In this document: positions 10,106-62,768 of the stretch, in pieces | Layout: each line of letters opens with the position of its first letter | Position numbering within the stretch: the first letter of the stretch is position 1 | DNA from: an uncultured delta proteobacterium | GTDB taxonomy: Bacteria; Desulfobacterota; Binatia; UBA9968 | Length of the DNA: 64,000 nucleotides | Assembly (NCBI GenBank): GCA_963755715.1 | Contig: CAVWLW010000050.1 | Location: 53,189-117,188, forward strand | Reading direction: 5' to 3' | The notes under the pieces: generated by a model | What the model was told of the DNA's origin: nothing | The model's database searches: none | The model's input: only the letters and a program-made list of their open reading frames with translations | Translations under genes and position numbers: made by a program

Positions 10106-10129
10106 AGACCAGCGCGAGGAGTTCGATTT

Positions 10130-14947
<4,818 letters not shown>

Positions 14948-36399: not shown

Positions 36400-36620
36400 A
36401 AGCAGCGCCTTCCCCGGATACCTGCTGTCAGCGCCCTGCTTGGCTGCGCTTTGCCCGGTCATCGAGGGGCGGACCCAAGTGGTTGAACGATTGAAACAAT
36501 TGGAACGACTGGAACTCTTACCTTCGGACTGTTGCCTGTTTCCTAATGGCTGTTGCCAATTCGTGGGAACTTTGAACGGTCGCTGTCTTGCAGCACAGGG
36601 TTGTGATGAACGAGGGCGAT
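36400..36620 (-). pseudogene. heavily degraded RAYT remnant (..GNRQQ.. and EFQSFQLFQSFN segments)
   Basis: Minus-strand translations give ..PLGNRQQ.. (matching the RGNxRQ N-terminal motif) and EFQSFQLFQSFN (a triplicated version of the TQSFN motif). It shares gttgcctgtt / ggaac word content with the remnants at 37.9k, 40.9k and 58.5k. Confidence 0.3.
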
Positions 36621-39463: not shown

Positions 39464-39605
39464 CTTACAATGAAAAGAAAAAGTAGCCTGTCCCCTTTTC
39501 TCGTTCCAGTGCGACAGCGGCGAACCGCATCCTTGAGGCCGGGCGCCGGCTGGCTTATAGTCTGCGGAGAAACCGAATTCTCGTCATGCCGGCAGAGAGG
39601 ACACC

Positions 39606-40714: not shown

Positions 40715-41250
40715 CTATGTCCTCGCATCTTCGAAGCTTTCATTCCAGAAGACAGCGGATTTGAAGCCATAGACCTCGCTCTCTTCGCGTAACACATGCG
40801 TTTCCTCAAACTGCTCGACTTCACGATGCATCGCTTTGCTGTCGAGCTCGCCTTTGATCGTCTCAGCAAAGCCAAGCTGCCAACCGCGATCGCTTCGGAG
40901 CAACGCTTCACGTTGAACATTGAACCTTGAACTTTGAACGACCGTTTATCTGAAACGTCTTGAACGGAGCGTATCCTTCGACCAGCTCAGAGCCCGTCCT
41001 GAGTTTTATCGAAGGAAAGAGCGGAAGATCGAGCCGGTCATGGTGAGCCTACCGAACCATTAAACGACTGGAACGTTTGGAACCGTTGGAACGTCTGGAA
41101 CTCCCGTAAACGATTTGAACGGTTTGAACGATTGGAACGGGCTACGGTATTCGTTGGCACGGACCATGTTGAGATCCATGTAGATCAGACAGCGATGCAG
41201 GTGCTCGTCGGTCTCAATGGCAGTGGCATGATATTAAGTCAATAACTTAA
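40715..41250 (-). pseudogene. RAYT remnant (LNPVRA-like region, triplicated TFQ/SFN segment, middle region)
   Basis: 41160-41250(-) encodes ..YMDLNMVRANEYR.. (compare YIVLNPARV). 41040-41150(-) encodes NRLREFQTFQRFQTFQSFNGS. 40715-40903(-) encodes ..LGFAETIKGELDSKAMHREVEQFEETHVLRE.., homologous to the fragment at 39146-39463. Confidence 0.45.
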
Positions 41251-41367
41251 CTCATGCCTGACCCCAATTCTGCGATCTTCCTCTAACTCGTCCCGCCTCG
41301 AGGGATTCCGAGTTGCCAAAGTCCGGGCACCGAACGTAATGTCAGTCCTTCACGATTTGCCAATCGT

Positions 41368-43980
41368 TCACGGCGTCCCGATCAAGCCGTTGGATTGGAT
41401 GTTAAAGCCGTTCATCAACCATATCGCAACCGCCCCGGAAATCTGTCGCCACAGGATATCGCTCTTGCCGTCACCGTTGAAGTCACCGGTGCCGGCGATT
41501 TGCCAATCGTTTCCCGGCGTCCCGACCAAGCCGTTGGCTTGGATGTTAAAGCCGTTCATCAACCATATCGCAACCGCCCCGGAAATCTGTCGCCACAGGA
41601 TATCGCTCTTGCCGTCACCGTTGAAGTCACCGGTGCCGGCGATTTGCCATTCGTTTCCCGGCGTCCCGACCAAGCCGTTGGCTTGGATGTTAAAGCCGTT
41701 CATCAACCATATCGCAACCGCCCCGGAAATGTGTCGCCACAGGATATCGCTCTTGCCGTCACCGTTGAAGTCACCGGTGCCGGCGATTTGCCATTCGTTT
41801 CCCGGCGTCCCGACCAAGCCGTTGGCTTGGATGTTAAAGCCGTTCATCAACCATATCGCAACCGCCCCGGAAATCTGTCGCCACAGGATATCGCTCTTGC
41901 CGTCACCGTTGAAGTCACCGGTGCCGGCGATTTGCCAACCGTTTCCCGGCGTCCCGACCAAGGCGTTGGATTGGATGTTAAAGCCGTTCATCAACCATAT
42001 CGCAACCGCCCCGGAAATGTGTCGCCACAGGATATCGCTCTTGCCGTCACCGTTGAAGTCACCGGTGCCGGCGATTTGCCAACCGTTTCCCGGCGTCCCG
42101 ACCAAGGCGTTGGATTGGATGTTAAAGCCGTTCATCAACCATATCGCAACCGCCCCGGAAATGTGTCGCCACAGGATATCGCTCTTGCCGTCACCGTTGA
42201 AGTCACCGGTGCCGGCGATTTGCCAATCGCTCTCCGCTGTCCCCAAGTCAAGCGCCGCGCCGGTGGCCCAGTTACCTGAGGTTGCGCCGGTGATAAGCTG
42301 ATTGAAGCCCCAGGCGGCCGCCGTGCTTGACGGGTCGATTTGGGTCGCCGAATAATCTCCCCAGCGACATGAAGCACTGGTCTTTTCGTTGGATACTGTG
42401 TTGCACGGGACAAAGCGAACGCCATCAAACTCCACGGTGAACTGAGTTGCCGACGTTGCGACAACGTCAAAAGTATACCCCGCGCTCGATGAGTTCGGAC
42501 CGCGGAACATGAGCATGGCTGCATTGCCGGTCGGAGCTCCCTGCGATGGCCACGTGCGCGTCGCTGTGACGAACGCATCTGCGGCGTTGGTCGCAACCGA
42601 CGGATTGAACACGTTATCGTCAGACGCAGTAAACAGATCTATTGTGAACAGCGGAGCCGTGCCCGTCGTCGAGAACTGGTAGAGCCGAGCCACAGCACGG
42701 CCATTGTTCACGGCGTGGACGTTCCATAGGGACGTTCCGTTCTGAATGCTGGCGGATTGGAAGCGACCATCCAGAGTGTCGAGCCTCTGACCGTTGGGTT
42801 GTGCAGCATCCGGCGCAGCCGTCCATGCCGTGACCGTGATCGGCGATGTGGTGCTCAACGTATCGGAACCGACACTGGCGCCCTCAGTGAGCTGATACCG
42901 CGTGATCGAGTTGCCGGAGCCCGAGCCCGGCGAGAGGAAGTACGGCGTCGTGCTGGAATCCTGGACGAGCGGAGGCGCGATATTAAACACCAAGTCGTTG
43001 AAGCATATGGCGCTAGGTGCTGTGCCGACGAGTGATGGCGCCTTATCGATCGAAATGATCGCCCCCCTCACCGTGGTGATGCCGAAATCGTTCGCCGTGA
43101 TGAACCAGCGCGCGCTGCTATATCCGGCGCTTGGATAGTCCCAGGAGCGGTTGGCTGCTTGTTTGCAAAAAAATGAGCCTCCTTGGCTGAGAAAGAAACG
43201 ATACTGGAACCACGTGGTACCAGTGTTGTCGGTGGAAACGGCGAAGTATTGGAACTGATCAGCGTTGGTGCTGTCGTCCGAGTCCGCCGATACAAAGAAG
43301 CGGTCCACCGCGGGATCGTAGAGCACACGCGGATCGAACAATGTCTGGGTTGCCGGAATCGAAAAAGCATTGAAAAAGGTCTTCAGCGATACTTTGCTGA
43401 CCAGCGCGCAGTTTGTCTTGTTGTAAACGCCGACCTCGACGTTCGTCACCGTAACGATGTTGGCTGGGCCGGCCGCACCGTGAATGTCGGACGGCAAAAA
43501 CCCCACCGCCGAGTTCGTCTGACAACTGGGCGGGACAGTTGGCGATTCCGACGGCGGCGGCTGCGGCGCACTTGTGAACGGGCCTTGCCGTTGTGCGGGC
43601 GCAACAGGCTGGTTCGTCTTGATCTGCCCCAGCGCGTCATCACCGATCGGGATTCGCCTGTGAATCGCTCTCGGGGACACATCCTGTTCGGACATGAGCA
43701 TGTCTTCGGACATGATCATGCCCAGGGGCATCTGGTAGGTCCCGCCGCCGATTGCTGTCTGGATCTGGACTTGAGCTTGCGCAGCACCCGATGGGCCGAT
43801 GAGTACGAAGCCTGAGGCTAGTCCAACGAGACGGACCAGCCAGAGGGCGATCCACCTTACGCTTCGGCTTGATGCTCTTTGAAAACTATAGTTGGCCACG
43901 TCACAACTCTGGAGTTCACAAGCACATAATCCAAGCTCGTGGCCCAGGTCAAACAGTCCTGACTCAGCCTGACCGTGCAC
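41368..43980 (-). CDS. secreted protein with N-terminal uncharacterised domain and six C-terminal FG-GAP/VCBS-like repeats
   Basis: 870-aa ORF. A signal-peptide-like segment (RWIALWLVRLVGLASGFVLIGPSGAAQAQ) follows a possible alternative GTG start. The C-terminal third is six copies of QIAGTGDFNGDGKSDILWR(H/Q)ISGAVAIWLMNGFNIQ(S/A)N(A/G)LVGTPGN(G/E/D)W. Confidence 0.7.
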   Translation of the reverse strand: MHGQAESGLFDLGHELGLCACELQSCDVANYSFQRASSRSVRWIALWLVRLVGLASGFVLIGPSGAAQAQVQIQTAIGGGTYQMPLGMIMSEDMLMSEQDVSPRAIHRRIPIGDDALGQIKTNQPVAPAQRQGPFTSAPQPPPSESPTVPPSCQTNSAVGFLPSDIHGAAGPANIVTVTNVEVGVYNKTNCALVSKVSLKTFFNAFSIPATQTLFDPRVLYDPAVDRFFVSADSDDSTNADQFQYFAVSTDNTGTTWFQYRFFLSQGGSFFCKQAANRSWDYPSAGYSSARWFITANDFGITTVRGAIISIDKAPSLVGTAPSAICFNDLVFNIAPPLVQDSSTTPYFLSPGSGSGNSITRYQLTEGASVGSDTLSTTSPITVTAWTAAPDAAQPNGQRLDTLDGRFQSASIQNGTSLWNVHAVNNGRAVARLYQFSTTGTAPLFTIDLFTASDDNVFNPSVATNAADAFVTATRTWPSQGAPTGNAAMLMFRGPNSSSAGYTFDVVATSATQFTVEFDGVRFVPCNTVSNEKTSASCRWGDYSATQIDPSSTAAAWGFNQLITGATSGNWATGAALDLGTAESDWQIAGTGDFNGDGKSDILWRHISGAVAIWLMNGFNIQSNALVGTPGNGWQIAGTGDFNGDGKSDILWRHISGAVAIWLMNGFNIQSNALVGTPGNGWQIAGTGDFNGDGKSDILWRQISGAVAIWLMNGFNIQANGLVGTPGNEWQIAGTGDFNGDGKSDILWRHISGAVAIWLMNGFNIQANGLVGTPGNEWQIAGTGDFNGDGKSDILWRQISGAVAIWLMNGFNIQANGLVGTPGNDWQIAGTGDFNGDGKSDILWRQISGAVAIWLMNGFNIQSNGLIGTP
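41383..42300 (-). repeat. six and a half tandem 141-bp coding repeats (near-identical at DNA level)
   Basis: The unit gccgttggattggatgttaaagccgttcatcaaccatatcgcaaccgccccggaaatctgtcgccacaggatatcgctcttgccgtcaccgttgaagtcaccggtgccggcgatttgccaatcgtttcccggcgtcccgaccaa recurs at 141-bp spacing, with only a handful of substitutions per copy. Confidence 0.85.
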
Positions 43981-44095
43981 TGCGGAGGCGGTGAAGCTAG
44001 CCGGGCTAACGGTTGCTTTTTCTTCCAGACTCTAAAACACCGAGTCCGATTTACGTGAACTTTAAACCTTGAACCTTGAATGGGCGCAAGCCATT

Positions 44096-45058
44096 TTACT
44101 CCGGCATCACCTGTTGGACTCGCTCGGGCTCATCGCCGAGCCACGTCGGATTGGATGCGGTGCCGTCGAAAATCGACGTCGTCTTAAACAGCTCGAATTC
44201 GCCGCGCGCAGCCGCTTTCGCCGTTTTCGTCAGCAACGATTTCACTTGGGTTTTGCCCATCGGTCGAAAAGTGCGCGCCGCGTCGAATGCCTGATCGAGA
44301 ATCTCCATGCTATCGACACCGGTGATGACCACCGACGTCGGTAAGTTTAGGGCATAGTGGAGACACTCTATCGCAGTTACGGTCTTCGACTTCAGAATAA
44401 GTCCGTTAGCCATGCTTTTCATGCCGAGCACGCCGATTTTTTGCTTCACGAGCTCGGGCAGAACCAGTTTTTCAAAGCTCCGGTAGTGCGCGTCCATGAC
44501 GTTGAGCGGCATCTGCACCGTATCGAACTTGAACCGCTGCTGCTTTGCCACCTCGAGCATATAGAGGTGAATGCGCGGGTCCTTGTGGCCGGTGAAGCCG
44601 ATGTAGCGGAGCTTTCCCGCTTTACGCGCCTCGATGAGCGCAGCGTGGGCGCCGTCGTCGTCGAAGATGCGGTGCGGATCCTCGTAGCGCAGGATCTCGT
44701 GGTGCTGGACCAGGTCAATGCAGTCGGTCTGCAGGCGACGCAACGACTCTTCGATTTGCCTCGCTGCTTCTTTTTTCGAGCGCCCGTCGATCTTGGTCAT
44801 CAAGAATACTTTGCTCCGATAGCCGTCGCGGAGCGCTTTGCCCATGCGGATCTCGCTGGCGCCGTCATTGTAGTCCCAGCAGTTGTCCATGAAGTTGATG
44901 CCGCGATGAATCGCATCGCGAACGATACGGATACTCAGCGGTTCATCCACCTTTTTGAGGCCGAGGTGCCAGCCTCCAAGACCGATGGCGGATACCCGTT
45001 CTTTGGTGCTGCCGAGGACTCGGTACGGCATTTCAGCGTGCCCTGTGTTTGTCGCCAT
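44096..45058 (-). CDS. aldo/keto reductase
   Basis: AAGGAGGAG RBS before the ATG at 45058 (MATNTGHAEMPYRVLGSTKERVSAIGLGGWHLG..). Full-length AKR fold features (..DNCWDYNDGASE.., ..IGFTGHKDP..). Confidence 0.85.
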   Translation of the reverse strand: MATNTGHAEMPYRVLGSTKERVSAIGLGGWHLGLKKVDEPLSIRIVRDAIHRGINFMDNCWDYNDGASEIRMGKALRDGYRSKVFLMTKIDGRSKKEAARQIEESLRRLQTDCIDLVQHHEILRYEDPHRIFDDDGAHAALIEARKAGKLRYIGFTGHKDPRIHLYMLEVAKQQRFKFDTVQMPLNVMDAHYRSFEKLVLPELVKQKIGVLGMKSMANGLILKSKTVTAIECLHYALNLPTSVVITGVDSMEILDQAFDAARTFRPMGKTQVKSLLTKTAKAAARGEFELFKTTSIFDGTASNPTWLGDEPERVQQVMPE

Positions 45059-45254
45059 GGTCTCCTCCTTTTGAATTGCCTGCCGTGGTTTTTTGGTTTG
45101 CTGCATGCTGGATAGATACGCGATGCGTATCATCTAAGTATTTCACCTCTTTTGTTGCCTGCAAGATGGGTTGCGGCCGGAGGGCGTGAAGAAGTCGGGG
45201 TATCCCGACTGTAAAAATTTTAGTGAAAGGGCCGGAGCTTGCGATACGACAGAG

Positions 45255-46079
45255 TCAATTCGCTTCCTCGATTCGTTTGAGTCTGCGGCTCACCGTCGCG
45301 TAGTGGACATCCAAGTGCGAGGCGATCTCGTTGAGCCGATATCCATGCGCGTACGCCTCGGCGATCGCCTTTTCGCCACTCTTTGCAAATATCCGCTGCA
45401 GCGAGGGCGTAGCCGCTCTCAATTGCGCGCGCGGTATCTCCTTAACGTCCTTTTTACCAGAAGCGTGTTTCTCGATGAACGCTTCACTTCCCAAGTAGAT
45501 CTGACCCTTGAGATCGTCCCACGGCCGACTCGCCATTCCGTCCCTGACGAACTCCCGATATCGCTGCTGTGCTCTTGATCGGCTCTTGCCAAATTGCTCC
45601 AGAATCCAGTCGGTGTGCAGAAACTCCGGCACGGATGCGAGTCCCGCGGTGGCCCGGTAACTGCTCCATTTCCAAGTGGATGCTTTGGCGCTGCTCTTGA
45701 CCCGCGCGGGATTGAGCACGATGTACCGACATAGTTCCAACAGATGCGAATCCCTTTCTACCAGGATCGCCTTGAATCGCCCCTGAAACAGATGTCCAAC
45801 CCGGTTGTGCCGGCGGTTAAAACTTTGCGTGTAAATGCCGTTGAGCTGGCGCATGCCGATCGAAAGGTTCGCCTTGGGCGTCTCCACCAGCAAGTGATAA
45901 TGATTGGCCATCAAGCAGTAGGCGCGGCAGATCCAGTGGTAGCGAGTCACCACCCCGGTCAGTGTGCTCAGAAACAACTCGCGGTCGGCGTCAGTAAAAA
46001 ACACTTTCTGCCGCGCGTTGCCGCGGCCCGTCAGATGATAGATCGCACCGGGAAACTCTAATCGCAGAGGGCGCGCCAT
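45255..46079 (-). CDS. REP-associated tyrosine transposase (RAYT; IS200-like Y1 HuH transposase, COG1943-type) with C-terminal HTH extension, apparently intact
   Basis: 274 aa with no internal stops. MARPLRLEFPGAIYHLTGRGNARQKVFFTDADRELF..YCLMANHYHLLVETP (HuH) ..GIYTQSFNRRHNRVGHLFQGRF (catalytic Tyr region) ..YIVLNPARV..WKWSSY.., then the C-terminal ..HGYRLNEIASHLDVHYATVSRRLKRIEE. Confidence 0.85.
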   Translation of the reverse strand: MARPLRLEFPGAIYHLTGRGNARQKVFFTDADRELFLSTLTGVVTRYHWICRAYCLMANHYHLLVETPKANLSIGMRQLNGIYTQSFNRRHNRVGHLFQGRFKAILVERDSHLLELCRYIVLNPARVKSSAKASTWKWSSYRATAGLASVPEFLHTDWILEQFGKSRSRAQQRYREFVRDGMASRPWDDLKGQIYLGSEAFIEKHASGKKDVKEIPRAQLRAATPSLQRIFAKSGEKAIAEAYAHGYRLNEIASHLDVHYATVSRRLKRIEEAN

Positions 46080-46328
46080 AGCACCGACCTTCTTATCGAA
46101 CGAAATGTGTTATTGCAAGACCTGACCCCAAAACCATGCACTCCGCGCTGGTCGCGCCTGCTTATCGGCTTCAGCGCGCTTTACGCCGGCGCCATGATCG
46201 CGCTATGTTCTAACGATGATTTTTAAGCCCGAGATGCGCTGGTTCGGCGGCACGATTCCGATTTTCTTTCACTTCGTGCTGGCCGGTTTTATCTTGGTGC
46301 TTGGACGCTACCACTCTCAAGCCAGCAA

Positions 46329-48125
46329 ATGAAAGCTATCATCTTAATCATCGGCTTAATCATCGGCGCTTGCTTGACCTGGCTTGTGTGTGCGCCATCC
46401 CGGCTAGGCTCATGGTGGCTCGCGAAACAAATCGGCGCGCGGCCCGCCGAATATTCGGTTCGCATCGAACGCGGGGTTACCATGACTTCGTACGACGGAA
46501 CCCTGTTAGTCGCGGATGTTTATCAACCGTCTGACGCGAGTCCGCACCCGACTATTCTGGTCCGCATTCCGTATACAAAGAATTTCTATAATACGATGAT
46601 CGCGACCGTTGTCGGAAGATATTGGGCCGAGCGGGGATACCACGTCGTCATCCAGGGCACGCGCGGACGCTACGAATCCGACGGAACATACGATCCCTTC
46701 AAACACGAGCGACGAGACGGCATCGAAACCCTGCGCTGGATCGCCAAGCAGCCTTGGTTCAACGGGCGATTGGGCATGTGGGGAGGTTCCTACTTCGGCT
46801 ATACTCAGTGGGTGTTGGCGGATCAGTCTGCGCCTGGGGCCTCGGCGTTTAATATTCAGATTGCGAGCAGCGAATTTTACCGTATGTTTTATCCAGGCGG
46901 CGCACTCTCACTCGAAAGCGCTTTGAATTGGGCTGTCAGCAGCCACGGCAAAGAAGACATCGAGCCCGACCAAGAAACCCTGGATCGCGGATTTAACGGC
47001 CTGCCACTGATCCAAGCGGACGACCGCGCCATAACCGATATCCCGTTCTTCAACGACTGGGTGAATCACCCAACGAGAGACGAATATTGGCACGCCGTCG
47101 ACGGCGATGAGCGGGTGAAAAATCTCACTGCGCCGGCGCTTTTGATGGCCGGATGGTACGATCCTTTCTTACCGGCGCAACTCGATGATTTCGTGCGTAT
47201 ACGGCGCGATACCCGTCCGGAGGTAGCGGCGGCATCACGCTTGGTCGTCGGACCTTGGGCGCACGCGCGCACCGTCATCCTGCCGGACGGCGCGGTTCAA
47301 CCCAACTATCGCGTCGAGAGTTTCACGCCAAGTGTGCCGTGGTTCGACCAACACTTGCGCGGCACTGGAGAGGCGTTGGCGGCGCCGGTCCGAATCTTTG
47401 TCATGGGCGCGAATGTTTGGCGCGACGAACAAGAATGGCCGCTTGAGCGGACGCAGTTCGCGGATTTTTTTCTCGACAGCAGCGGCCGTGCAAATAGCGC
47501 CGGCGGCGACGGAAGACTATCGTTGAAAGCGCCAGCCGAAAACACACCGTCGGACACTTTTATTTACGATCCATTGCGCCCCGTGCCGTCTGCCGGCGGC
47601 GCCATGATCGGCCCGCGTGCCGGCATCGCTTTACAAAACAAGCTCGAAGCGAGGCCGGATGTGCTGGTTTACTCAACGCCGCCACTGGATAAAGACATCG
47701 AAGCAACCGGGCCGGTGAAGCTCATTCTGTTCGTTGCGACGACGGCGCCCAATACCGATTTTACTGCCAAATTAGTCGACATATTTCCGGACGGCTCGGC
47801 ATATAACGTGTCCGATGGTATTCTTCGACGCGGGTATGAAGGCAATTCTCCTACGAAAATCACCGTAGACCTTTGGCCCACAAGTTTCGTTTTTCGCAAA
47901 GGACACCGTATCCGGCTCGAGGTGTCAAGCAGCAATTTTCCCCGATTCGATCGCAACCCGAATACCGGAAGAACCATCGCTACCGAAACGGAAACGATCG
48001 TCGCGCGCCAAATGATTCATCATAGTTCGTCTATGCCATCGCGACTGGTTCTACCGGTGATTCCACATCGGGAGACCGCCACGGAAACACGAACAACATT
48101 GATTGAATCAGCCAATTTGCCGTGA
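46329..48125 (+). CDS. CocE/NonD-family hydrolase (S15 X-Pro dipeptidyl-peptidase-like alpha/beta hydrolase)
   Basis: 598 aa. ..RIPYTKN.., nucleophile elbow GGSYFGYTQW (GxSxG), and the C-terminal beta-sandwich region typical of the CocE/NonD family. Confidence 0.75.
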   Translation: MKAIILIIGLIIGACLTWLVCAPSRLGSWWLAKQIGARPAEYSVRIERGVTMTSYDGTLLVADVYQPSDASPHPTILVRIPYTKNFYNTMIATVVGRYWAERGYHVVIQGTRGRYESDGTYDPFKHERRDGIETLRWIAKQPWFNGRLGMWGGSYFGYTQWVLADQSAPGASAFNIQIASSEFYRMFYPGGALSLESALNWAVSSHGKEDIEPDQETLDRGFNGLPLIQADDRAITDIPFFNDWVNHPTRDEYWHAVDGDERVKNLTAPALLMAGWYDPFLPAQLDDFVRIRRDTRPEVAAASRLVVGPWAHARTVILPDGAVQPNYRVESFTPSVPWFDQHLRGTGEALAAPVRIFVMGANVWRDEQEWPLERTQFADFFLDSSGRANSAGGDGRLSLKAPAENTPSDTFIYDPLRPVPSAGGAMIGPRAGIALQNKLEARPDVLVYSTPPLDKDIEATGPVKLILFVATTAPNTDFTAKLVDIFPDGSAYNVSDGILRRGYEGNSPTKITVDLWPTSFVFRKGHRIRLEVSSSNFPRFDRNPNTGRTIATETETIVARQMIHHSSSMPSRLVLPVIPHRETATETRTTLIESANLP

Positions 48126-48438
48126 TAAGAAAACGCTCACCGCGGAGGCCTTCAAATCACGATGAATTTCCAAGGGGAGAAATTACGGTGTCTACCATCG
48201 GAATTTAGCAGGTAGCAGGATCTAAGAGAATCCTGTAAAGAGATTCTTGACGAGGGTGTGGCTCTTGGGGTCAGTGGCCTGTTTATTCAGGCTCACCCAG
48301 TCTGAAATGCCGCCCTCGTCACCTGCATCATCCGAGGGTCGACCGGGATGGTGCCATATTCTCTCACCAGAATACGTGGCTCTGTAAGTAGACGAGACCG
48401 AAGGATGATGAAATCTCGATCTACGAAGGAGGAGCTAC

Positions 48439-49890
48439 GTGTCAGAAGAAAAATCATTAGAACTCAGAGTCAGTGTGGACGTGGGGTATCGTCGTCACAG
48501 TGTGGCGATGGGGTTATCGAGCGGCGAGGTGCTCGAAGAGTTCGAAATCGAGCACCGGCCCGAGGGATTTCAAGAGTTCTTTTCTCGCATCGAGAAGCAC
48601 CGCAAGAAAGAGTACTGTGCAGTAGCGGTAGCCATGGAAGGTTACAACGGCTACGCGCGGCCACTGGACAGCATGGTCCGTCAACGGGGTTATCGGCTTT
48701 ATAATCTCAACAATCTAAAGTTTGCTCGCTTCAAAGAGATTTTCCCCGGAGCTGCCAAGAGCGACCGGATCGATGCGCGCAAGGGATTGGAGCTGTTTCA
48801 GCTAAGCGATCATCTGCCGTTGGCCAAAGAAGTGCTGCAGGAAGTCAGTGGGACACCGCCCGAGAACGAAGTCCTCAAACGATTAACCCGGCGCCGGCGC
48901 AGATTAGTCAACGAGCGGGTGCGGGTGGTGAACAATCTACAGGCCGATCTGCAAGCGGTGTGTCCAGGGTTATTAGAAATCACCGGTGAAGCAAGCAACC
49001 AGTGGTTTTTAAATTTTCTTCTCAGTGTGGACACTCTGCCCCAGCTTGCCCGGCTCAGACGCAGCACGCTTTTGAAGATCCCCTCGGTGGGAGTGAAGAG
49101 CGCCGCTATCATTGAGCGACTGGCAGAAGCGTGCTCACTTTAGCCAAGAGGTCGAGTGGGTCAGCGAGATGATCCAGGAAGATGCCAGGCGGTGTGTGGA
49201 GCTCGATGAGAAGATTAAGCGGTTAGAAACCAAGGTTGCCGAGGTTGCTAAGGACTCCAAGATCGCCAAGACTTTACGATCGATTCCGGGGTTTGGTGCC
49301 GTGTGCACTTCAGAATTGGCCGGCGAGATCGGCACCATCGAACGGTTTGCCTCTGAGGGAAGCCTTTCTTTGTATCTTGGCATGTCCACGTTGGACAACA
49401 GGTCGGGGAAATACCAGGGGACCAAGGCACCCAAGCACGTGAACACTCGGGCCAAAGCAGCGATGATGATCGCTTTGGATCGACATCGAAAATATGTCCC
49501 CGAGTCGCAGAGGTACTACGAAAAGAAACGAAGCGAGGGAAAGAAACACAACCAGGCGATTCGAGCTCTAGGTCGACACCTCGTCTCGGATCATTTACAA
49601 GATGCTCAAACAAGAACGGGAGTATGAGATTCGTCCTGAAAAGGGGAATACCAAGAGCCAAGGTCAGTCCGAGATCGTTCGATTAAAACGAAAATACGGA
49701 GGCCGAAAATCTCGAGCCAAGAAACAAAATAACAAAATCTACGAGCAGAGCGCGTACAGGCGTCATCACCGCTTGAAATTTCCAGCGGGATGTTCAGACT
49801 TTCTATTCTTGACAATCTGCCGCGAGTTGCACCGCCTGCTTCCTCAAAGGTTCGTTCTCGCTCATACGAACGGCAAACCGCGAGACTAAG
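48439..49890 (+). mobile_element. IS110-family transposase gene, disrupted by two frameshifts
   Basis: GAAGGAGGAG RBS, GTG start. The N-terminal DEDD domain (LRVSVDVGYRRHSVAM..AVAMEGYNGYARPLD) ends at 49143. The Transposase_20-type C-terminal domain (LRSIPGFGAVCTSELAGEIGTIERF.., ..YLGMSTLDNRSGKY..) is in a second frame (49112-49627). The typical ..RIIYKMLKQEREYE.. tail is in a third frame (49602-49889). I did not identify the element ends. Confidence 0.65.
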
Positions 49891-50078
49891 GAACTAACCG
49901 TTGCAACGTCTCGACCCAGACACTTCGCAACATCTTTAAGCTTATAGCCCAGCCGCCGGATCAGTACATATCCGACCAGCGCCCGCGATTGCGAGACCTC
50001 CCAGCCTCGGCCTGCTCCTTCAAGCACCTGGGGCTCCACCTCAACCGCTCGCGCGGCACTGCGAAACACGACGCTCAA
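49803..50078 (-). pseudogene. RAYT C-terminal (HTH-like) remnant
   Basis: ..RALVGYVLIRRLGYKLKDVAKCLGRDVATVSSLVSRFAV.. matches the C-terminal module of the intact RAYT and the fragment at 30077-30205. It lies next to the IS110 copy. Confidence 0.45.
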
Positions 50079-50330
50079 CTGCTTCTTACGCCGGAAAATC
50101 TCTTCCTCGTTAACTTTGCGCTTGAGCTTTTGGGCAAACTCCTCAGCTCCCGAAAACCGGTGGTCCTCAACCTGGTAATAATCCTCCCGATGCCCCCTCC
50201 GAGCGCTGCGCCGCCCAAGCCAGCAGAAGCAACATTGGGATTTTCATCAACCAGAAAGACGATTGACATCCCACCAGTCCGGCGGTATTGCTCGGGCCAG
50301 AAAAAAAGGTGGTTTAAAATTCCTATACAG

Positions 50331-50966
50331 ATGGAAACCCAAACGGCAACTCAGTTGCAGACGCAAAGTGAAAATGCCATGGAGCGCTTCGTGCGTAAAA
50401 CCCGTGTGCTCTTCGCTCAAGAACCGGACCTCGACAAGCGTTGGAATTCCCTGAGGCCGATACTCGCCGAGCTTCTGGCCGATCCTGACGTAATCGCGGC
50501 ATCGACGCAATGGCCGGATTGCGTGCCGGCGAACGGGCGAGCAGAGAATCTGCTTTTTTACGAGGATCTGGATTACGGCTTTGCCATCAACGGATTGACC
50601 AAAGGCGACGCAAGGCAAGGCGGGCGCGCTCGCATCCACGACCACGCCCATATTTACACACTCTACGGCGTGCTCGACGGACATGAGAAAGTGGTCCGTT
50701 ACGACCGGCTCGACGATCGCTCGAAGCCTGACCACGCCGAAATCCGGGAGAGCTGCAACGTGCTCGTCGGCCCCGGAGAGATCGACCTCGTCAAGCCCTA
50801 TGAGATTCACACCGAGATCACCGTTGGTGAACGCACCGTTGCCGTGATTATTCGCAGCCAGAAAGGCGGCGAGTTCAATCAGGGACGCTATGTTTCGGAA
50901 GAGAATCGTTACTATGAAAGCCTGGGACCGCGACAGACCCCTTGCGAGATGCTGCCAAAATATTAA
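50331..50966 (+). CDS. cupin-fold protein, cysteine-dioxygenase type I-like
   Basis: 211 aa from the internal ATG (METQTATQ). ..GRARIHDHAHIYTLYGVLDGHEKVVRYD.. resembles the metal-binding His cluster of bacterial CDO-like cupins. The family call is tentative. Confidence 0.45.
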   Translation: METQTATQLQTQSENAMERFVRKTRVLFAQEPDLDKRWNSLRPILAELLADPDVIAASTQWPDCVPANGRAENLLFYEDLDYGFAINGLTKGDARQGGRARIHDHAHIYTLYGVLDGHEKVVRYDRLDDRSKPDHAEIRESCNVLVGPGEIDLVKPYEIHTEITVGERTVAVIIRSQKGGEFNQGRYVSEENRYYESLGPRQTPCEMLPKY

Positions 50967-51016
50967 CCACGATTAAAATTGGGTAGCATGACAAGCATGC
51001 TCCTGCCCAAGAGGAG

Positions 51017-51640
51017 ATGACCATGGCACGACCCGAAAGAATTGGCCAATCGTTAGAATCGATCGAAGCATTGATCCACTACCTTGAGGAGGGCGAAAAA
51101 CCGGCCAGCTATGGTGGCGTGAGAAAATCAGTGGCGGCCCAGAAGAAAAAGGGCAAATATCAAGAGCACAAAATGACGATTTACAACGCCCGCGCCATCG
51201 CCGATCAATTGTCCCTGGAGCGCGAAGGTTTCATTCTCGTCAATCATGAAACCAAGATGACAAACTTCTACGACGAGAATGAAATTCGCAACCTGTACTA
51301 CAAGGAAACCGAGGAACTGGTAAAACGGACCTCCGGCGCCAAACGCGTCGTGGTTTTCGATCACACCTTGCGCTCCGCCGACGAGGCGATGCGTGAAGAG
51401 AAACAGATCAGCGGGCCGGTGCGCCACGCTCATAACGACTACACCGATTGGTCCGGGCCGCAGCGCGTGCGCGACCTACTCCCCGACGAAGCAGAAGAGC
51501 TTCTCAAACGCCGCTTTGCCATCGTCCAAACCTGGCGGCCGATCAACAAGCCCGTGCAGCGGGAGCCGCTGGCGATTGCCGATGCGCGCAGCATCGGAAC
51601 GAAGGAACTGGTCGCGCTCATGGCTTTCGACGGCAATTAA
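51017..51640 (+). CDS. hypothetical protein (possibly CmcJ/NvfI-like hydroxylase family)
   Basis: GAGGAG RBS. 207 aa. Has His/Asp-rich segments (..VVVFDHTLR.., ..VRHAHNDYTDW..), but I cannot assign a family. Confidence 0.35.
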   Translation: MTMARPERIGQSLESIEALIHYLEEGEKPASYGGVRKSVAAQKKKGKYQEHKMTIYNARAIADQLSLEREGFILVNHETKMTNFYDENEIRNLYYKETEELVKRTSGAKRVVVFDHTLRSADEAMREEKQISGPVRHAHNDYTDWSGPQRVRDLLPDEAEELLKRRFAIVQTWRPINKPVQREPLAIADARSIGTKELVALMAFDGN

Positions 51641-51658
51641 CCCCGGCGGAGGGTCGAA

Positions 51659-52669
51659 ATGGAAACGAAGAAAACAGTTCATATCACTTGGGAGGAAGCC
51701 CATCGGGCAGAGACGGAGCGAGACAAGGCGAGACAGACATGCTGCCGATCCATACCGCCAAATCGGATGAAACTTACCACCGTTTACGTTTCTAGAGACC
51801 TCCGTAAACTAAAAGCTTCGGCGTTGCGTCTCTGGGACGTGACATTTAACCACAGGGTTGGGGCATCGGGCTATAAGGGAAAAACCCTTTTTAGTCCTGC
51901 AGCGGTCGAGAGAATCACAGAGTGGTCAAAAGGGTTTCCCCGGCTCGTCAACACAATTTGCGACAACGCGTTGCTCATTGCGCATTCAGCTTATAAACAA
52001 GCCGCTACTGCGAAAATGCTGAAACAAAAAGAGCTGGCTCAGGGTTTCCAACGCCGCGTGGAGACGTCGACGAAAACAAACGTGGCAGGGACAAATTCTC
52101 AAACGTTGGGGAACCGACATAAAGCCGAGGCGGAGGAAGCCCAACGAACGCAATTCGGCGAGGATGAGCTTCGAGAGATTTATTTTAAGCGTGGCCCGAC
52201 GAAATCGGCAGTCGCGATATTCCTGGGGATCATTTTACTGGCCGGTGTCGGGACGGTGTCCTATTCGCAACAGAGCAAAAACTATTTGTCCCATCTAGCT
52301 GTGAAGTGGGGAGCTATCGCTCAGCGAGCCGTACGCTATACTTCTGACGTAGAGGTGATGGTTGAAAACTCGAAGGCGCAACCCGTCGCGCCTCAACTCT
52401 CTTCAACAAATCAGGAACCTGTTCAACCTGACGGTCGAGAAAGCACAGCGAAAAAAGCGCGGGACTATTTGGGTAACTTTGAAGTCGTCGACGATTCCTT
52501 CGTTCGCGATAACCCCCAACCGAATGCCGCCGTAATCGCGACTCTCCGGCCCGGCACGCAGGTCAGGGTAGAAAGCAAAACAGGAGAGTATTTCCGTATC
52601 CGCTCATTGCACGACCCGGAGGTTATCGGTTATGTGCATGAACAAGACGCCTTCTTTCAAGCGCATTAA
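51659..52669 (+). CDS. ExeA/GspA-like protein lacking the N-terminal AAA ATPase domain (C-terminal helical region, TM segment, SH3b-like domain)
   Basis: ..FSPAAVERITEWSKGFPRLVNTICDNALLIAHSAY.. matches the ..G.PR.IN.LCD.AL.. region downstream of the ExeA ATPase. TM helix AVAIFLGIILLAGVGTV. C-terminal ..VIATLRPGTQVRVESKTGEYFRIR.. (SH3-like). The ATPase part is absent, so it is probably truncated. Confidence 0.4.
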   Translation: METKKTVHITWEEAHRAETERDKARQTCCRSIPPNRMKLTTVYVSRDLRKLKASALRLWDVTFNHRVGASGYKGKTLFSPAAVERITEWSKGFPRLVNTICDNALLIAHSAYKQAATAKMLKQKELAQGFQRRVETSTKTNVAGTNSQTLGNRHKAEAEEAQRTQFGEDELREIYFKRGPTKSAVAIFLGIILLAGVGTVSYSQQSKNYLSHLAVKWGAIAQRAVRYTSDVEVMVENSKAQPVAPQLSSTNQEPVQPDGRESTAKKARDYLGNFEVVDDSFVRDNPQPNAAVIATLRPGTQVRVESKTGEYFRIRSLHDPEVIGYVHEQDAFFQAH

Positions 52670-52830
52670 ATGAGGATACATTTCCGTCGAGTTGACGGTT
52701 AAAAGGGAGAAATGTTTTTGTCGGTTAATTTTGCGCTTATTGAGATTGAATTGAATTCTCCGTCAATTCATTTCAGTGATACGAAATTGTCAAGATTGGC
52801 TAGATTAGCAAGTCTGATCAGGCTTACCTT

Positions 52831-53442
52831 TCAAAAAATGTCGTATTGCAAGACCTGATCCCGTGGGTTTGCTTGAAAGTGATTGACCATCCGAGCAATG
52901 GTCGCGTCGTCGAACATATCGCCGTTATAACTCAGCCAACCGCGCAGGCGGCTATTCTCCTCCACCATGTAGAGGTGCAGGTCGAAAATCGCTATTCCCG
53001 ATCCAAAATCCAGTTCCTCCGTTCTTAGCCCGGCAAGCTCAAGGGGAACGAGCGGAGTGTTCTGCAGCGCGAATGTCACCTGAAAGAATGGATTGCGACT
53101 CAGATCCCGATCGGGCCGTAACTCCTCGACGATTTTCTCGAATGGCAAGTCTTGATGAGCATACGCTTCTAGACACACGTCGCGCACGCGTACCAGGAGT
53201 TGCCGAAACGTAGGATTTGCCGAGAGGTCCGTACGCAAGACCAACATATTCAGAAAAAACCCGACCAGCTCCTCGGTCTCCTTGTGATTCCGACCTGCCA
53301 TCGGACTACCGACGACAATGTCATTCTGACCGGTATATCGCCGCAGCAGTGTTTGATACGCCGCCAGCAATATCATGAAAAGCGTGCTCCCAGATTCCTG
53401 CCCGAGGCTCTTGAGTCCGGCTAGGAGTTTCCCCGACAACAC
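52831..53442 (-). pseudogene. orphan NRPS condensation-domain C-terminal half (fragment)
   Basis: ..LAAYQTLLRRYTGQNDIVVGSPMAGRNHKETEELVGFFLNMLVLRTDLSANPTFRQLL..HQDLPFEKIVEELRPDRDLSRNPFFQVTF.. is near-identical in pattern to the C-domain halves in the main NRPS locus. No upstream HHxxxDG half or downstream A domain follows. It ends ..MVNHFQANPRDQVLQYDIF*, where the last codons are the REP-like motif tattgcaagacctgatccc. Confidence 0.7.
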
Positions 53443-53481
53443 AAAGGATTTCTGGGCGCCTATTCAACGAAAAAAGTAGAC

Positions 53482-54730
53482 TGAGCTAGCCCGGGTTTGA
53501 CGGACACCGAAAAAGGGGACAAGAAACCCCTGGAGGAGGTGTTCGATGACGAAGCGCAAGAGATTTAGCCCAGAGTTCAAGCGAGAAGCGGTCCGATTGA
53601 TAGAGACATCGCAGAAGTCTATCGGCAGATCTAGGCCGCGAACTCGGCGTCAGGCGCAATCAACTTTATAAGTGGAAAGAACAGCTGAGTCAGCGTGGGG
53701 CAGGAGCTTTTCCTGGATCTGGACGAGGATCGGGCAGCAACGATGAGGTGGCTCGACTACGCAAGGAGTTGGAGCAGGTCAAAGAGGAGCGCGACATCTT
53801 AAAAAAGGCAGCCGCGTACTTTGCCAAGGAGCTCAAGTGAAGTACGCCTTTGTCCGAGCTCATTCTCCAGAGTTTCGAGTCAGCCGGATGTGCCAAGTGC
53901 TGAAGGTCAGTCGCAGCGGCTATTATGACTGGCAGGGCCGTAGTGAGTCCCCGCGCAGCCAACGGGATCAGGTTCTGCTCAAAGAGATTCGTCAGATCCA
54001 CGAACAGACCAAAGAAGCTTACGGAGCGATTAAGACCTGGCAGGCGTTACGACAGGCAGGAGTTGACTGTGGCAAGCACCGAGTGGCTCGACTACGGAGG
54101 TTGGCTGCCATAGAAGCGCGGCGGAAAAGAAAGTTTCGACTGGCTTATCGGTCTCGTCATAGTGCTCCGCCGGCTCCCAATTTATTAAAGTGGCCGTTCC
54201 AGGCCGCTCACGCCGATCAGATCTGGGTGACCGATGTAACGTTCATCCCAACTCGTGAGGGTTGGCTCTATCTTGCTGTACTCATCGACTTATACACTCG
54301 TTTGATCGTTGGTTGGTCAATGAAAGACCGGCCCAATCAGGAACTGGTCAATGAAGCTTTGATGATGGCTGTGGAGCAGCGACGGCCCAAACCGGGACTT
54401 ATTCACCACAGCGACCAGGGGATTTTGTATTCCAGCGGGAGCTACCTTGAACTGCTCAACCGTTACGCGATGGTGCGTAGCATGAGCGGCAAGGGCAACT
54501 GCTATGATAATGCGGTGGCTGAAAGCTTTTTCAGTTCGTTGAAAAACGAGATCGTTCATCATCGGGACTACCACACCCGGGATCAAGCGAGGAGCGAGAT
54601 CTTTGAATACATCGAGCTGTTTTATAATCGCAGGCGACTACACCAATCGCTGGCGTACCAAACACCGATGAGCTACGACTCGACCAACGTGGGTGCTTAA
54701 TTAACTGTCCGTGAAACCCGGGGCAGCTCA
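53482..54730 (+). mobile_element. IS3-family insertion sequence (orfA/orfB with A6G slippery site), 25-bp terminal inverted repeats, orfA additionally frameshifted
   Basis: IRL tgagctagcccgggtttgacggaca (53482-53506) pairs with IRR tgtccgtgaaacccggggcagctca (54706-54730), a 23/25 match that ends TG..CA. orfA from ATG 53547 (MTKRKRFSPEFKREAVRLIETSQKSIG) shifts frame near 53625 before continuing ..LGVRRNQLYKWKEQL..LKKAAAYFAKELK*. The slippery ttaaaaaagg lies at ~53796. orfB 53837-54700 is DDE-type (..WVTDVTFIPTREGWLYLAVLIDLYTR..HHSDQGILYSS..). Confidence 0.8.
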
Positions 54731-54864
54731 GCCTGACCCCTTTTCTCGTCCCTGACATATTGGCGTTGCTACGACAGCGCGAACTTCATCTGCAGCCAAG
54801 ACAGTAACTTATTTAGTCAGTCGTCGTTAGGTTGCCTATCGGCATCGTGTATTTTATCGATTCA

Positions 54865-55299
54865 CTAGCCCCGCCCTCGCACCGTTAAGACGGGAATCCG
54901 TGAATGTCTAACGACCGACTCAGCGGTGCTCCCGAGAAAGGCCAGCGCGATGCCGGTTCGGCCATGAGAGCCCATAACGATCAAATCGGCCTTCCACTCA
55001 TCGGAAGATGTGACGATCTTTCGGCTTACGTTTCCTTCCACTAGATATTCCCAAGGTGGAGGATCGCCGCCGATTCGCCGTGCCGCGCATCGCAGAAGTC
55101 GCCGTGCTTGCTCACGGAATTCGTCGAGTACGTTTGAAGCGGGAAAGCCGCCTTCTGGTGCGTAGGCGATTCTCGGATCGAGCGCATGAAGCAACGCGAT
55201 CTCCGCTCCGACCGCTTTCGCGAGATCCCTCCCCACTTCCATTGCGTGAATCGAGATTGGGCTGTCGTCGAGGGCGATAAGAATACGCTGAAAACTCAT
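54865..55299 (-). CDS. universal stress protein (UspA family)
   Basis: AAGGAGGGAG RBS. 144 aa. ..ILIALDDSPIS..LLHALDP.. and the C-terminal ATP-binding motif GSHGRTG..LGSTAESVVRHSRIPVLTV. Confidence 0.8.
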   Translation of the reverse strand: MSFQRILIALDDSPISIHAMEVGRDLAKAVGAEIALLHALDPRIAYAPEGGFPASNVLDEFREQARRLLRCAARRIGGDPPPWEYLVEGNVSRKIVTSSDEWKADLIVMGSHGRTGIALAFLGSTAESVVRHSRIPVLTVRGRG

Positions 55300-55441
55300 G
55301 GCTCCCTCCTTTTTACTTTGCGTTTATCGCAATCCTCGCTGTAGCCGTCTGAATTTAAATTGAGCAACGGCTATGCCAGATCTTTCACTGCCCATTTGTC
55401 ATCGTAAACCCGCTGCTTAGCGACAAGTATCGGAACCGAAA

Positions 55442-56300
55442 TTGCTAGTGGTAATAGGCAAAATGAACACTCTCGAATTTACGCTATTGATTGGCATCGG
55501 ATCATTTCTCGCCGGATTTTTAGGATCTCTAACCGGCTTGGGCGGCGGAGTCGTCATTGTGCCGCTGTTGACATTGGTTTTTGGCGTTGACATCCGTTAC
55601 GCCATCGGCGCGTCGCTAGTTTAAGTAATCGCAACCTCCTCAGGCGCCGCCGCTGCGTACGTCGGCGAAGGTTATAGCAACATGCGAATCGGCCATGTTC
55701 CTCGAGATTGCAACGACGATCGGCGCGTTGGTTGGTGCGTTGCTCGCGGGAATGTTGGCCACGTCTCTGATCGCAGTGATTTTTGGCTTGGTATTATTGT
55801 ATTCGGCCTACCTGGCGGCGGTGCCGAAACAGGAATGGATCGGTGACGGCAAGCCCGATCGGCTCGCTACTTTCCTCCGATTGGATGGCGATTATCCGAC
55901 TGCGACGGGACGGCAAAACTATCATGCGCACGGTATACCGGGCGGCTTCAGTTTGATGTTTGTCGCTGGAGTGCTGTCGGGATTACTTGGCATTGGCTCG
56001 GGCGCGGTTAAGGTACTCGCCATGGATCAGATGATGCGTCTCCCTTTCAAAGTGTCCACCACGACGAGCAATTTCATGATCGGCGTCACCGCGGCCGCCA
56101 GCGCTGGGGTTTATTTAAGCCGGGGCTACATAGAACCTGGATTAGTAATGCCGGTCTTGCTGGGGGTTCTCGCCGGATCACTGCTCGGCGCGCGGGTTCT
56201 GATCACCGCTCCAACAAAGAACTTACGGATTGTCTTTAGCTCCGTGATTGTGATCTTGGGCGTAGAGATGATTTTAAACGGAATAACCGGAAACTTGTAA
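55442..56300 (+). pseudogene. TauE/SafE (DUF81) family membrane exporter, in-frame TAA at 55622 plus +1 frameshift near 55690
   Basis: N-terminal piece ..LTGLGGGVVIVPLLTLVFGVDIRYAIGASLV*. Continuation ..VIATSSGAAAAYVGEGYSNMRIG then, in the next frame, MFLEIATTIGALVGALLAGML..GIGSGAVKVLAMDQMMRLPFKVSTTTSNFMIGVTAAASAGVY.. (two TauE half-repeats). Confidence 0.55.
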
Positions 56301-57839: not shown

Positions 57840-58140
57840 TGCAATCGGCGATCGAGTTGGCCATGAGGTGCACCGGCGGCCACGACATCGCGCCGAACAT
57901 AGTCATAGGCGCTTCGAGCACAGCCGGCGCAACCTGATCGAGCTGATGCGCCATCTCACCGCGCTGCCCGTCTACGACAACAGCGCGCACGCCGATCCGG
58001 CGACCGGCAAAACTCCCAACTTGAACTGGTGCTCCACATGGAGCGCAGAAAGATACGCAACCCAACGATCTGAAACACACGCCCGATTAGGCAAGGCCAA
58101 TCGTTGCCACGGCGCTAAAGCTGCACCAGCGTTGATCCTC
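57840..58140 (+). pseudogene. second zeta-toxin C-terminal remnant (frameshifted)
   Basis: ..GGHDIAPN.., ..RRFEHSRRNLIELMRHLTALPVYDNSAHADPATGKTP.. and, in another frame, ..LELVLHMERRKIRNPTI..RPIVATALKL.. parallel ..GGHDIAAEHIRRRYEHSRLNLVDLLPRITALRVYDNSADADPAAGKIPKPKLVLHMENGKILNRRNL..KPIVAAALKLTAS of the intact toxin at 27512-28156. Confidence 0.45.
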
Positions 58141-58780
58141 ACGCTGCAACACAAACCGACGATGCGTGGCGTGCCCGCTCGACATCGGGACTTCGGTACA
58201 GGCGTTCGGGAATTTGTCTTAGAGACAGGCTACTTTTCTTCTCGCTGCGCGGTCGGCCGCGTGATCGCAATGTGCTTCCAAGTCCGAAAGTCTCAGCTAT
58301 TTCCCTTTGCCATTCTGAGTGACCGTACGATCTTTGCCGATTCAGGCATTCCCGTACTGCCACCACTTGCAACTCGTCCAACGGATTTTTCAACTGCACC
58401 GACCACGAATTCTCTTCATCCGTAGGCAGGCGATCTATAAGCTGCCTTCGCAGAACGCCGCCCGCTGCCCTTTGCGCAGGGTTGTATTCCTGGGTAACGG
58501 GGCCAGAAACTACACTTTGCACATTGAACCTTGAACCGGCGATCGTTCTATGGCCTATTGCCTTCATCCTTGCCTCAAGTCTATCTTGAGTGAAGCGCTG
58601 GAAGGTTGAAAGGGTTCCGTTTGGGAACATTGAAACTTTGAACGATCTCCGGCGTTAAACGTCTTGAACGGACTAGATTCGGGGGATCGCACGGCTTGAA
58701 CGATTTGAATTCTCCCGAGTATTACGTTGAGCTTTGAACCTTGAACCATCTCTTTACTGTTGCCTCATCCCTATTCGCTT
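58139..58780 (-). pseudogene. RAYT remnant (catalytic-Tyr region through C-terminal ..FGLGSTLRSRGRPRSEKK; degenerate N-terminal motif at 58748-58775)
   Basis: MFPNGTLSTFQRFTQ..IGHRTIAGSRFNVQSVV..YNPAQRA..ENSWSV.. aligns with LNGIYTQSFNRRH..GHLFQGRFKAILV..LNPARV..WKWSSY of the intact RAYT. 58620-58750 shares the gttcaa-rich ~170-bp architecture with 37940-38110. Confidence 0.45.
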
Positions 58781-62051: not shown

Positions 62052-62768
62052 GGGGAGTGCCTCCTGAAGTGAGGATGCGTTAAGATCCCAGGGACCTTTA
62101 GACGATCACTTTCAATGGCGAATTACAAGAAGCCGTAGAGTCCTTTCGGTTCGCCGTCGACGACCCAGACGCAGTATGCTGTCGACCCCGAACATCGGCG
62201 CCATTGCAGCTTGCCAGACCGCTTTTCCGAACGATCTCTCCCGGTTCAGTCGGTCACGAACCACGCGCACGAACATGGGCTTTGTGATTCTTCCTCGCGG
62301 AATTCTCGCCACGAAGCGCTTCTCTAACAGGAGTGATAAAAAATTATCAAGATTGTCAAGATTAGAAAGTCTGGCCCTGCGCTCTCCCCTTTCTTTGAGT
62401 CCTCGCGTCAGGAAAGCCGAGCTGGGTCAAGCTAAAAGAATTGTCTTGAATAAAAAGCGTGAGCCACCTCACGCCTGCCTTTACATTTCGACGTTTCGAG
62501 AATTCCCGAAACGTGGAAGTTCGTTCAAGGATTGAAAAGGCTCACAATGAAAAAGTAAGTGATGTGCCAGCCGTACCCAGGAAGAAAATGGCGGTTGGCG
62601 CGCGGCATCGCTGGCTCTTAGAGTAAATGATTCAACCTCAAAAAGTGGACGCTAAGCCTCTAATCGACGCCTATATCACAAACTTATGTCGGGGAATCAA
62701 GATCTTGCGCTGTCCGACCGGCGAGATGTTTCCCTAGAAATTCTGACCCTGTCGTTTCCCCTCTCGGA

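Follow-up and report, generated by a model that had tools for sequence, protein, structure and literature searches.

A probable pseudogene remnant of a second nonribosomal peptide synthetase gene beside TIRtron terminal repeats in an uncultured delta proteobacterium

Among the elements with Y1 transposases, TIRtrons form a class that has been little studied. They encode TIRYT, tyrosine transposases associated with terminal inverted repeats (TIRs), and the heads of these TIRs read GGGGWSAS (Di Nocera et al. 2013, PMC3733652). The TIRYT correspond to subclass 2.1 of the TnpA-Y1 proteins, which has a C-terminal HTH_23, HTH_28 or DnaA-like (Bac_DnaA_C) domain (Quentin et al. 2018, PMC6006769). The REP/RAYT systems (REPtron, REPIN) are built similarly, with a single-copy Y1 gene, inverted short repeats, and non-autonomous singlets and doublets in intergenic DNA. 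Here, we analyze a stretch of 64,000 nucleotides from an uncultured delta proteobacterium of the Binatia (assembly GCA_963755715.1, contig CAVWLW010000050.1), which we call the window and whose positions are used throughout. In this window TIRtron ends lie next to a 589-bp piece of a nonribosomal peptide synthetase (NRPS) gene. The piece encodes the C-terminal half of a condensation (C) domain and is very probably a non-functional, neutrally drifting remnant of a second NRPS gene, hence an ordinary pseudogene. Degraded remnants of NRPS and polyketide synthase genes in bacterial genomes look the same: they are internal domain fragments without a catalytic motif, evolve neutrally, are flanked by mobile elements and have an intact orthologue in a relative. 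We see no essential difference between them and this relic.

The intact orthologue carries this reading. A database search returned near-identical short open reading frames (ORFs) in related metagenome assemblies, and their 90% cluster includes a 1726-aa protein (P0276), encoded on contig L133, that is an intact NRPS with the domain order A-T-C-A-T. Nucleotides 3120-3708 of L133 match window positions 53460-52872 at 98.1% nucleotide identity (blastn), and the homology stops abruptly at both ends. The relic corresponds to codons 882-1077 of the intact gene. A colinear match of this quality to an internal part of a gene, with sharp ends, argues that the relic consists of internal codons of a second NRPS gene that two deletions left behind. 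The claim of a preliminary description of this DNA, that a second and independent NRPS gene had been destroyed here, is thus supported. No other pieces of the 1726-aa gene were found in the 64-kb window, and P0276, used to scan metagenomes, matched nothing but NRPSs with identities of at most 60%. Another candidate orthologue, P0274 on contig L213, was rejected; it is a different NRPS, about 70% identical at the nucleotide level.

The relic is overlapped by a 203-aa ORF on the minus strand (Table 1), which the preliminary description had read as the C-terminal half of a C domain. The Pfam profile agrees with this: the product matches PF00668 (Condensation) significantly and with partial coverage, over profile positions 227-427 of 456 (E 5.3e-45, 154 bits). 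Core motifs C5 to C7 were found in the product (VGFFLNMLVLR, HQDLPFEKIV and RDLSRNPFFQ). The catalytic HHxxxDG motif (C3) and the N-terminal lobe are absent from the relic, and homology begins after C4. In P0276 the motif HHIVFDGW lies upstream of the position of the 5' breakpoint; a matching N-terminal half of the C domain was not found nearby in the window. The final 13 codons and the stop of the ORF derive from a 9-bp filler and from TIR sequence (tail ..ANPRDQVLQYDIF and stop), as had been suspected when a repeat motif was proposed to supply its last codons. The 203-aa ORF is an accident of the junction sequences. An 'ANP' after HFQ had been a candidate for NRPS-derived sequence and was rejected by alignment to L133, and an extension of the C-domain homology by tblastn into the neighboring IS3 element (to 53676) was rejected as spurious. 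The distance of 40 bp given earlier between ORF start and IS3 element holds for the ORF; the real NRPS homology extends to 53460, 21 bp from the element.

The same relic with the same junctions is present in the contigs L001, L002 and L003. Since these are independent assemblies, the junctions are real. L001 and L002 have the gene order Usp, relic, SH3 gene. Every close copy of the relic has Usp on one side and the SH3 gene on the other, and no copy was seen in another context. The ORFs of the cluster members, leaving out the intact orthologue P0276 and the different NRPS P0274, range from 118 to 225 aa, and some have N-termini in another frame. With L133 as the outgroup, the relic has acquired 12 nonsynonymous and 2 synonymous changes after the copies diverged, compared with 18:18 in the flanking Usp and SH3 genes of the same strains (Fisher p 0.026). 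The ratio in the relic is compatible with a neutral 75% nonsynonymous, and one of the changes replaces F by L in motif C6. On these small counts, constraint on the relic is relaxed, as in a pseudogene. A functional stand-alone C-domain subdomain, for example a docking or regulatory partner, would account for the uninterrupted ORF in the window, L001 and L002 and for the intact C5-C7 motifs of the window copy. Such a protein is very unlikely here, since the HHxxxDG half is absent, the changes are predominantly nonsynonymous and the tail of the ORF consists of transposon-end sequence. Furthermore, a 5-bp deletion in the ORF tail changes the C-terminus in L002, and frameshifts or N-termini in another frame are found in L003 and other cluster members. 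The ORF does not appear to be maintained. In an annotation, a 203-aa "condensation domain protein" at this place should be treated as a pseudogene and not counted as biosynthetic capacity.

A source closer at hand would be the main NRPS locus of the window, and the relic might be a displaced segment copied from one of its C domains (1-15 kb). The domain type and the core motifs are common to both, and the best matches of the relic product within the window are C1 (3723-4313, 54% aa identity) and C3 (11082-11599, about 57%), followed by C2 (7021-7582, about 43%) and C4 (14322-14678, 41%). At the nucleotide level the identity to the main-locus C domains is only 64-67%, against the far closer match to the L133 gene, and the alignment that the preliminary description had proposed as a check reveals no exact displaced segment. 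A displaced copy is hardly credible, and the relation of the relic to the main-locus C domains is, judged from these alignments, ordinary paralogy and not recent duplication. The main NRPS locus (4631-14700) itself shows about 15 reading-frame changes and is split into many ORFs, while other long genes of the window are intact. It also contains a 547-bp tandem duplication (8776-9053 and 9323-9600, 92%). The frame changes suggest a general decay of NRPS genes, or else they are assembly errors in a repetitive region. Together, the relic and the frameshifted main locus would mean that secondary-metabolite genes are being lost in this lineage.

The IS3 family includes REP-targeting members such as IS1397. 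The element upstream of the relic belongs to this family (NCBIfam transpos_IS3, NF033516, E 1e-101; Pfam rve and HTH_21). It has a DDE transposase, TG..CA inverted repeats, a 3-bp target duplication, within the 3-4 bp of the family, and a -1 frameshift site, the A7G slippery site at about 53806-53813. With the IS3 family including IS1397 it shares the orfA/orfB arrangement, the A7G site, the TG..CA repeats, the 3-bp duplication and the insertion into a short repeated intergenic motif. It differs in an additional frameshift in orfA, caused by an additional G near 53624, which may leave the window copy defective, and any target specificity is here based on three insertions. The position of the element, 21 bp from the 5' breakpoint, would fit a truncation of the NRPS gene by IS3, through insertion with adjacent deletion or through an IS-mediated rearrangement. 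This is extremely unlikely. The identical 5' breakpoint occurs without the IS in L001 and L002, where the empty site reads GGGGACAGGCTACTTTTT. L003 reads ..CAGGC[IS]GGCTAC.., with a clean 3-bp GGC target duplication that is the mark of a simple insertion, and the window contains a single IS3 copy. The empty sites and the GGC duplication indicate that IS3 played no part in the truncation; the element is, to judge by its sequence context, a later and simple insertion, polymorphic at the strain level. The preliminary description had placed the relic against an IS3 copy and had attributed its destruction to a transposition-associated rearrangement. The element is indeed there, as the only copy in the window, and its proposed role falls away. 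What stands is the distance of 9 bp between the 3' breakpoint and the outer end of a mobile-element terminal repeat, with a causal link read from position only.

In three of three cases (window 53482, L133 6725 and L124 ~4176) an IS3 relative was found inserted into a GGGGWSAS-type head or no more than about 12 bp away from one. These relatives share 78-79% nucleotide identity among themselves, and the sites are motif C in the window (see below) and the right-end TIR of a TIRtron in L133. The left end of the window element (53506-53525) contains a motif-C-like string itself, CGAAAAAGGGGACA. With three insertions, this siting may reflect a target preference.

The repeat at the 3' end of the relic contains a 19-mer, TATTGCAAGACCTGATCCC (52844-52862), that recurs in the window as a C-variant at 46111-46129 (2 matches against 0.02 expected from shuffles). 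A Y1-transposase gene for a 274-aa protein has its ATG (46079) 32 bp downstream of the C-variant, so that the location just upstream of an intact transposase gene reported earlier is confirmed. The protein matches Pfam Y1_Tnp (E 1.1e-12), with the HUH (HYH) and RYIVLNP motifs of the Y1 core readable, and at residues 238-272 it matches HTH_23 (E 4e-6) and HTH_28 (E 3e-4), the C-terminal helix-turn-helix of subclass 2.1. The element, which we term TIRtron A, thus resembles described TIRtrons in its Y1 HUH transposase (NHYHLLV; RYIVLNP), its C-terminal HTH_23/HTH_28 domain and its inverted terminal repeats with GGGGWSAS heads, as well as in the solo and dimeric TIRs dispersed over the genome. In Acidobacteria, this family is prominent. 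The head GGGGTCAG is found in TIR-A and also in the TIR of a second element, TIRtron B, on L133, and both fit GGGGWSAS. Unlike described TIRtrons, the intact window copy has a diverged right-end TIR (16/23 aligned positions; 34 of 500 shuffles as good), while its left end is strong. In L109 and L112 exact motif copies flank a homologue on both sides in inverted orientation. The 19-mer is, on this comparative evidence, part of the terminal inverted repeat of a TIRtron.

The label 'REP-like', under which the motif had first been described, is imprecise. A REP unit is an imperfect palindrome of 20-40 nt with a GTAG/CGTC tag, whereas the unit here is headed by GGGGTCAG and is not self-complementary: the 27 nt contain no GTAG/CGTC tag, and their sole self-complementary stretch is TTGCAA. 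Hairpins are formed by doublets only (e.g. L110, L118 and L121). The TIRtron A protein scores 71.6 bits against NF047646 (REP_Tyr_transpos), below the cut-off of 80 bits.

A scan with one genome per species (loci L004-L123) revealed the exact 19-mer TATTGCAAGACCTGAYCCC in at least 120 species-representative genomes from at least 15 phyla, where about 9 would be expected by chance. Among the matches listed, 24 of 120 loci carry a TIRYT homologue, mostly with 48-57% aa identity to the window protein. In most of these loci the motif lies 27-32 bp before the ATG (inverted) or 10-25 bp after the stop. Many other listed copies stand alone or are paired in doublets, head to head or tail to tail. In 17 of 141 listed motif copies (about 12%), and in none of the shuffled flanks, we observed a 'stutter', in which partial head copies (..GACCCC) together with the first 7-9 bases of host DNA occur in one to four repeats immediately beyond the element. 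Examples are the outer flanks in L004, L012, L015, L033, L049, L071, L075, L081 and L118, and L133 5690-5735. The published TIRtron description (PMC3733652) reports neither a single 19-mer identical across phyla nor stuttered duplications outside the head. A full-text literature search for the motif strings retrieved no paper, and an Rfam scan of positions 45000-55500 at E<=1 gave no match. Further Y1-transposase remnants lie in the window at 34208-34254, 34340-34426, 62564-62610 and 58139-58630, with N-terminal coding stubs of the form MPRANRH..PG..WH at 34254 and 62610. The stretch 58226-58449 matches sequence that lies next to TIRYT in L124 and L125.

Both relic breakpoints can be placed to the base. 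Read on the minus strand, the 3' side runs from the relic (...CACTTTCAAG) through the filler CAAACCCAC into GGGATCAGGTCTTGCAATACGACATTTT, a variant TIR that we call TIR-A', and on to CAGACTTGCTAATC of TIR-B. On the 5' side, ...ACGAGAAAAGGGGACAGGCTACTTTTTC (motif C) is followed by GTTGAATA and then by GGCGCCCAG... of the relic. The 3' breakpoint is thus 9 bp from the outer end of TIR-A', and the 5' breakpoint 8 bp from motif C. Motif C (AGCCTGTCCCCTTTTCTCGT) contains the head GGGGACAG and occurs three times in the window (28315-28334, 39485-39504 and 54730-54749) against 0.01 expected. The head of the relic-side TIR is GGGATCAGG in the window; L001 and L003 have GGGGTGAGG instead, and the two variants point to an ancestral head GGGGTCAGG. 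The same A' variant is found upstream of a TIRYT fragment in L125. TIR-A' may be part of a collapsed TIR doublet, in which a left-end head GATCAGGTCTTGC pairs with GTAAGCCTGATC; the predicted DNA fold is weak (-7.6 kcal/mol, z -2.0, 5 of 200 shuffles as good). For motif C and the A' doublet alike, hairpin models were rejected as weak (z about -2 or worse). The motif C copy at 28315 lies directly behind a response-regulator gene, forms a head-to-head palindrome and has a T-run after it, and so resembles a terminator. Since both breakpoints lie within 9 bp of short repeats, the arrangement fits deletion at clustered transposon ends, although it does not prove it.

The second repeat next to the relic is an AT-rich element that had been reported from two sites of the window. 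It is found at 52790-52816 and 62347-62373 (2 matches against 0 expected), the two copies being collinear over about 42 nt, and a third, partial copy lies at 49795-49818. These are TIRs of TIRtron B. The left end in the window is 94% identical to L133 5733-5765, where the TIR has an intact GGGGGTCAGAC head and is separated by 75 bp from the NRPS stop before it and by 26 bp from a 308-aa Y1_Tnp gene after it; the right-end TIR-B of L133 overlaps the stop of this gene. NRPS sequence is followed by the left end of TIR-B in the same order and orientation in L133 and in the window, which argues that relic and TIR-B both go back to a single ancestral arrangement. When 120 loci from other phyla were scanned for motifs B and C, neither turned up outside this lineage. 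TIRtron B seems to be split in the window: its parts (52775-52816 and 49794-50195) are colinear, with about 2.6 kb of other DNA between them. This DNA includes the module with the SH3-domain gene, which occurs in three unrelated contexts (L124-L126) and has a sharp left edge at 51616. The same position is a strain-level synteny break, where the homology to L001 and L003 stops. The N-terminus of the SH3 protein resembles the C-terminal part of ExeA-like ATPases.

We therefore propose the following course of events. The ancestor would have had a two-module gene (A-T-C-A-T, ~1726 aa) followed by a TIRtron, that is a TIRYT gene between TIRs with GGGGWSAS heads. Two deletions would have taken codons 1-881 and 1078-1726, so that only the 589 bp with the C-terminal half of the condensation domain, devoid of HHxxxDG, were left. 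The 3' junction would have come to lie 9 bp from a solo or collapsed TIR-A', which itself abuts the retained left end of TIR-B. The relic would then have drifted neutrally, and in some strains IS3 would later have entered motif C by ordinary transposition. From the position of the breakpoints we infer that TIRtron activity or recombination between TIRs would have made the deletions.

Several points weigh against this course of events. The 9-bp and 8-bp fillers at the junctions are not accounted for, and few substitutions were counted. Contig L133 measures only 6.8 kb and contains no Usp upstream of the NRPS gene. Finally, relatives with 72-75% Usp identity keep the order DUF1634-TauE-Usp and have unrelated genes and no NRPS downstream. 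This last point would also be expected if the relic had arrived as a passenger within a mobile mosaic of motif C, TIR-A', TIR-B and the SH3 module, with no decay in place downstream of Usp. In line with such an arrival, conserved non-coding sequence stops near 54751, the SH3 module exists in several copies and strains differ in the region left of 51616. On the other hand, the shared order and orientation of NRPS and TIR-B in L133 implies that this pair moved or stayed together, and no second relic copy is seen in another context. We consider arrival as a passenger rather unlikely. Synteny via the SH3 protein failed as an approach, the gene being on a multi-copy module in unrelated contexts, and an exact look-up of the window Usp protein gave no record. 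The non-coding sequence downstream of Usp includes a 28-bp stretch (54751-54778, CTGTCGTAGCAACGNCAATATGTCAGG) that is 96% identical to L129 6522-6549. The genes flanking it in L129 are only 72-76% identical, and two similar direct repeats follow the stretch there.

The elements at the edges of the relic may be of more interest than the relic. The identity of the TIR across phyla and the stutter duplications lead us to suggest, tentatively and as one possibility among others, an active, horizontally spreading family of Y1 transposons with an undescribed mechanism of end processing or insertion. IS3 relatives may home to the heads of this family, and clusters of TIRs may be deletion hotspots that erode genes. 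If TIRYT-A cleaved at or next to the GGGG head of GGGGTCAGGTCTTGCAATAACACATTT, the stutter duplications and the 9-bp filler would be explained. The cross-phylum identity and the stutters are cheap leads for work on HUH transposases, and the intact orthologue at 98% identity makes the locus a dated example of gene erosion beside TIRtron ends.

Table 1. Coordinates of the relic, the terminal repeats and the associated elements in the window
Feature	Coordinates	Strand	Remarks
NRPS relic, C-terminal half of condensation domain	52872..53460	-	589 bp; Pfam and blastn against L133
Incidental 203-aa ORF over relic	52831..53442	-	GTG start within relic
9-bp filler CAAACCCAC	52863..52871	-	between 3' breakpoint and TIR head; string absent from L133
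Solo terminal inverted repeat, TIRtron A' variant	52835..52862	-	GGGATCAGGTCTTGCAATACGACATTTT; contains 19-mer; head fits GGGGWSAS
Possible collapsed TIR doublet, 47 nt	52816..52862	-	left-end head GATCAGGTCTTGC pairs with GTAAGCCTGATC, weak hairpin
Left-end TIR of TIRtron B (AT-rich element)	52775..52816	-	CAGACTTGCTAATCTAGCCAATCTTGACAATTTCGTATCACT; GGGG head lost
Multi-copy 1.15-kb module with SH3-domain gene	51616..52764	+	abuts TIR-B; 93-96% nt identity in L124-L126
TIRYT-B pseudogene, 3' 400 bp	49794..50195	-	90% to L133 6326-6727; right-end TIR 49795-49818 overlaps stop
Solo TIR-B copy	62335..62373	-	~290 bp upstream of isocitrate-lyase-like gene; 81% to L133 5730-5782
Intact TIRtron A	45229..46129	-	TIRYT gene 45255-46079; left TIR 46103-46129; diverged right TIR 45229-45251
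IS3-family insertion sequence, 1249 bp	53482..54730	+	inverted repeats TGAGCTAGCCCGGGTTTGACGGACA / TGTCCGTGAAACCCGGGGCAGCTCA, TG..CA
Target-site duplication copy	54731..54733	.	GCC on + strand, i.e. GGC
Second target-site duplication copy	53479..53481	.	GAC on + strand; one substitution relative to GCC in L003
Motif C outer half, split by IS3	54731..54758	-	inner half 53469-53481; ACGAGAAAAGGGGACAGGCTACTTTTTC in empty site

Some further features of the window were recorded. The named ones among the best database hits give a weak hint of an uncultured soil bacterium resembling Acidobacteriota. The TauE gene (55442-56300) is split into ORFs of 60 and 201 aa in the window and in L001 and is intact (278 aa) in L003; the split reflects either a genuine frameshift or an indel of the assembly. 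Seven tandem 144-bp repeats (95-98% identical, 41223-42386) lie in an 870-aa ORF on the minus strand (41368-43980). Intergenic runs of TTGAAC/GTTCAA with a period of 9 nt occur at 36476-36515, 37907-37946, 40906-41138, 44055-44081 and 58510-58746, and such runs are also found in L133 1-330, upstream of the intact NRPS gene.

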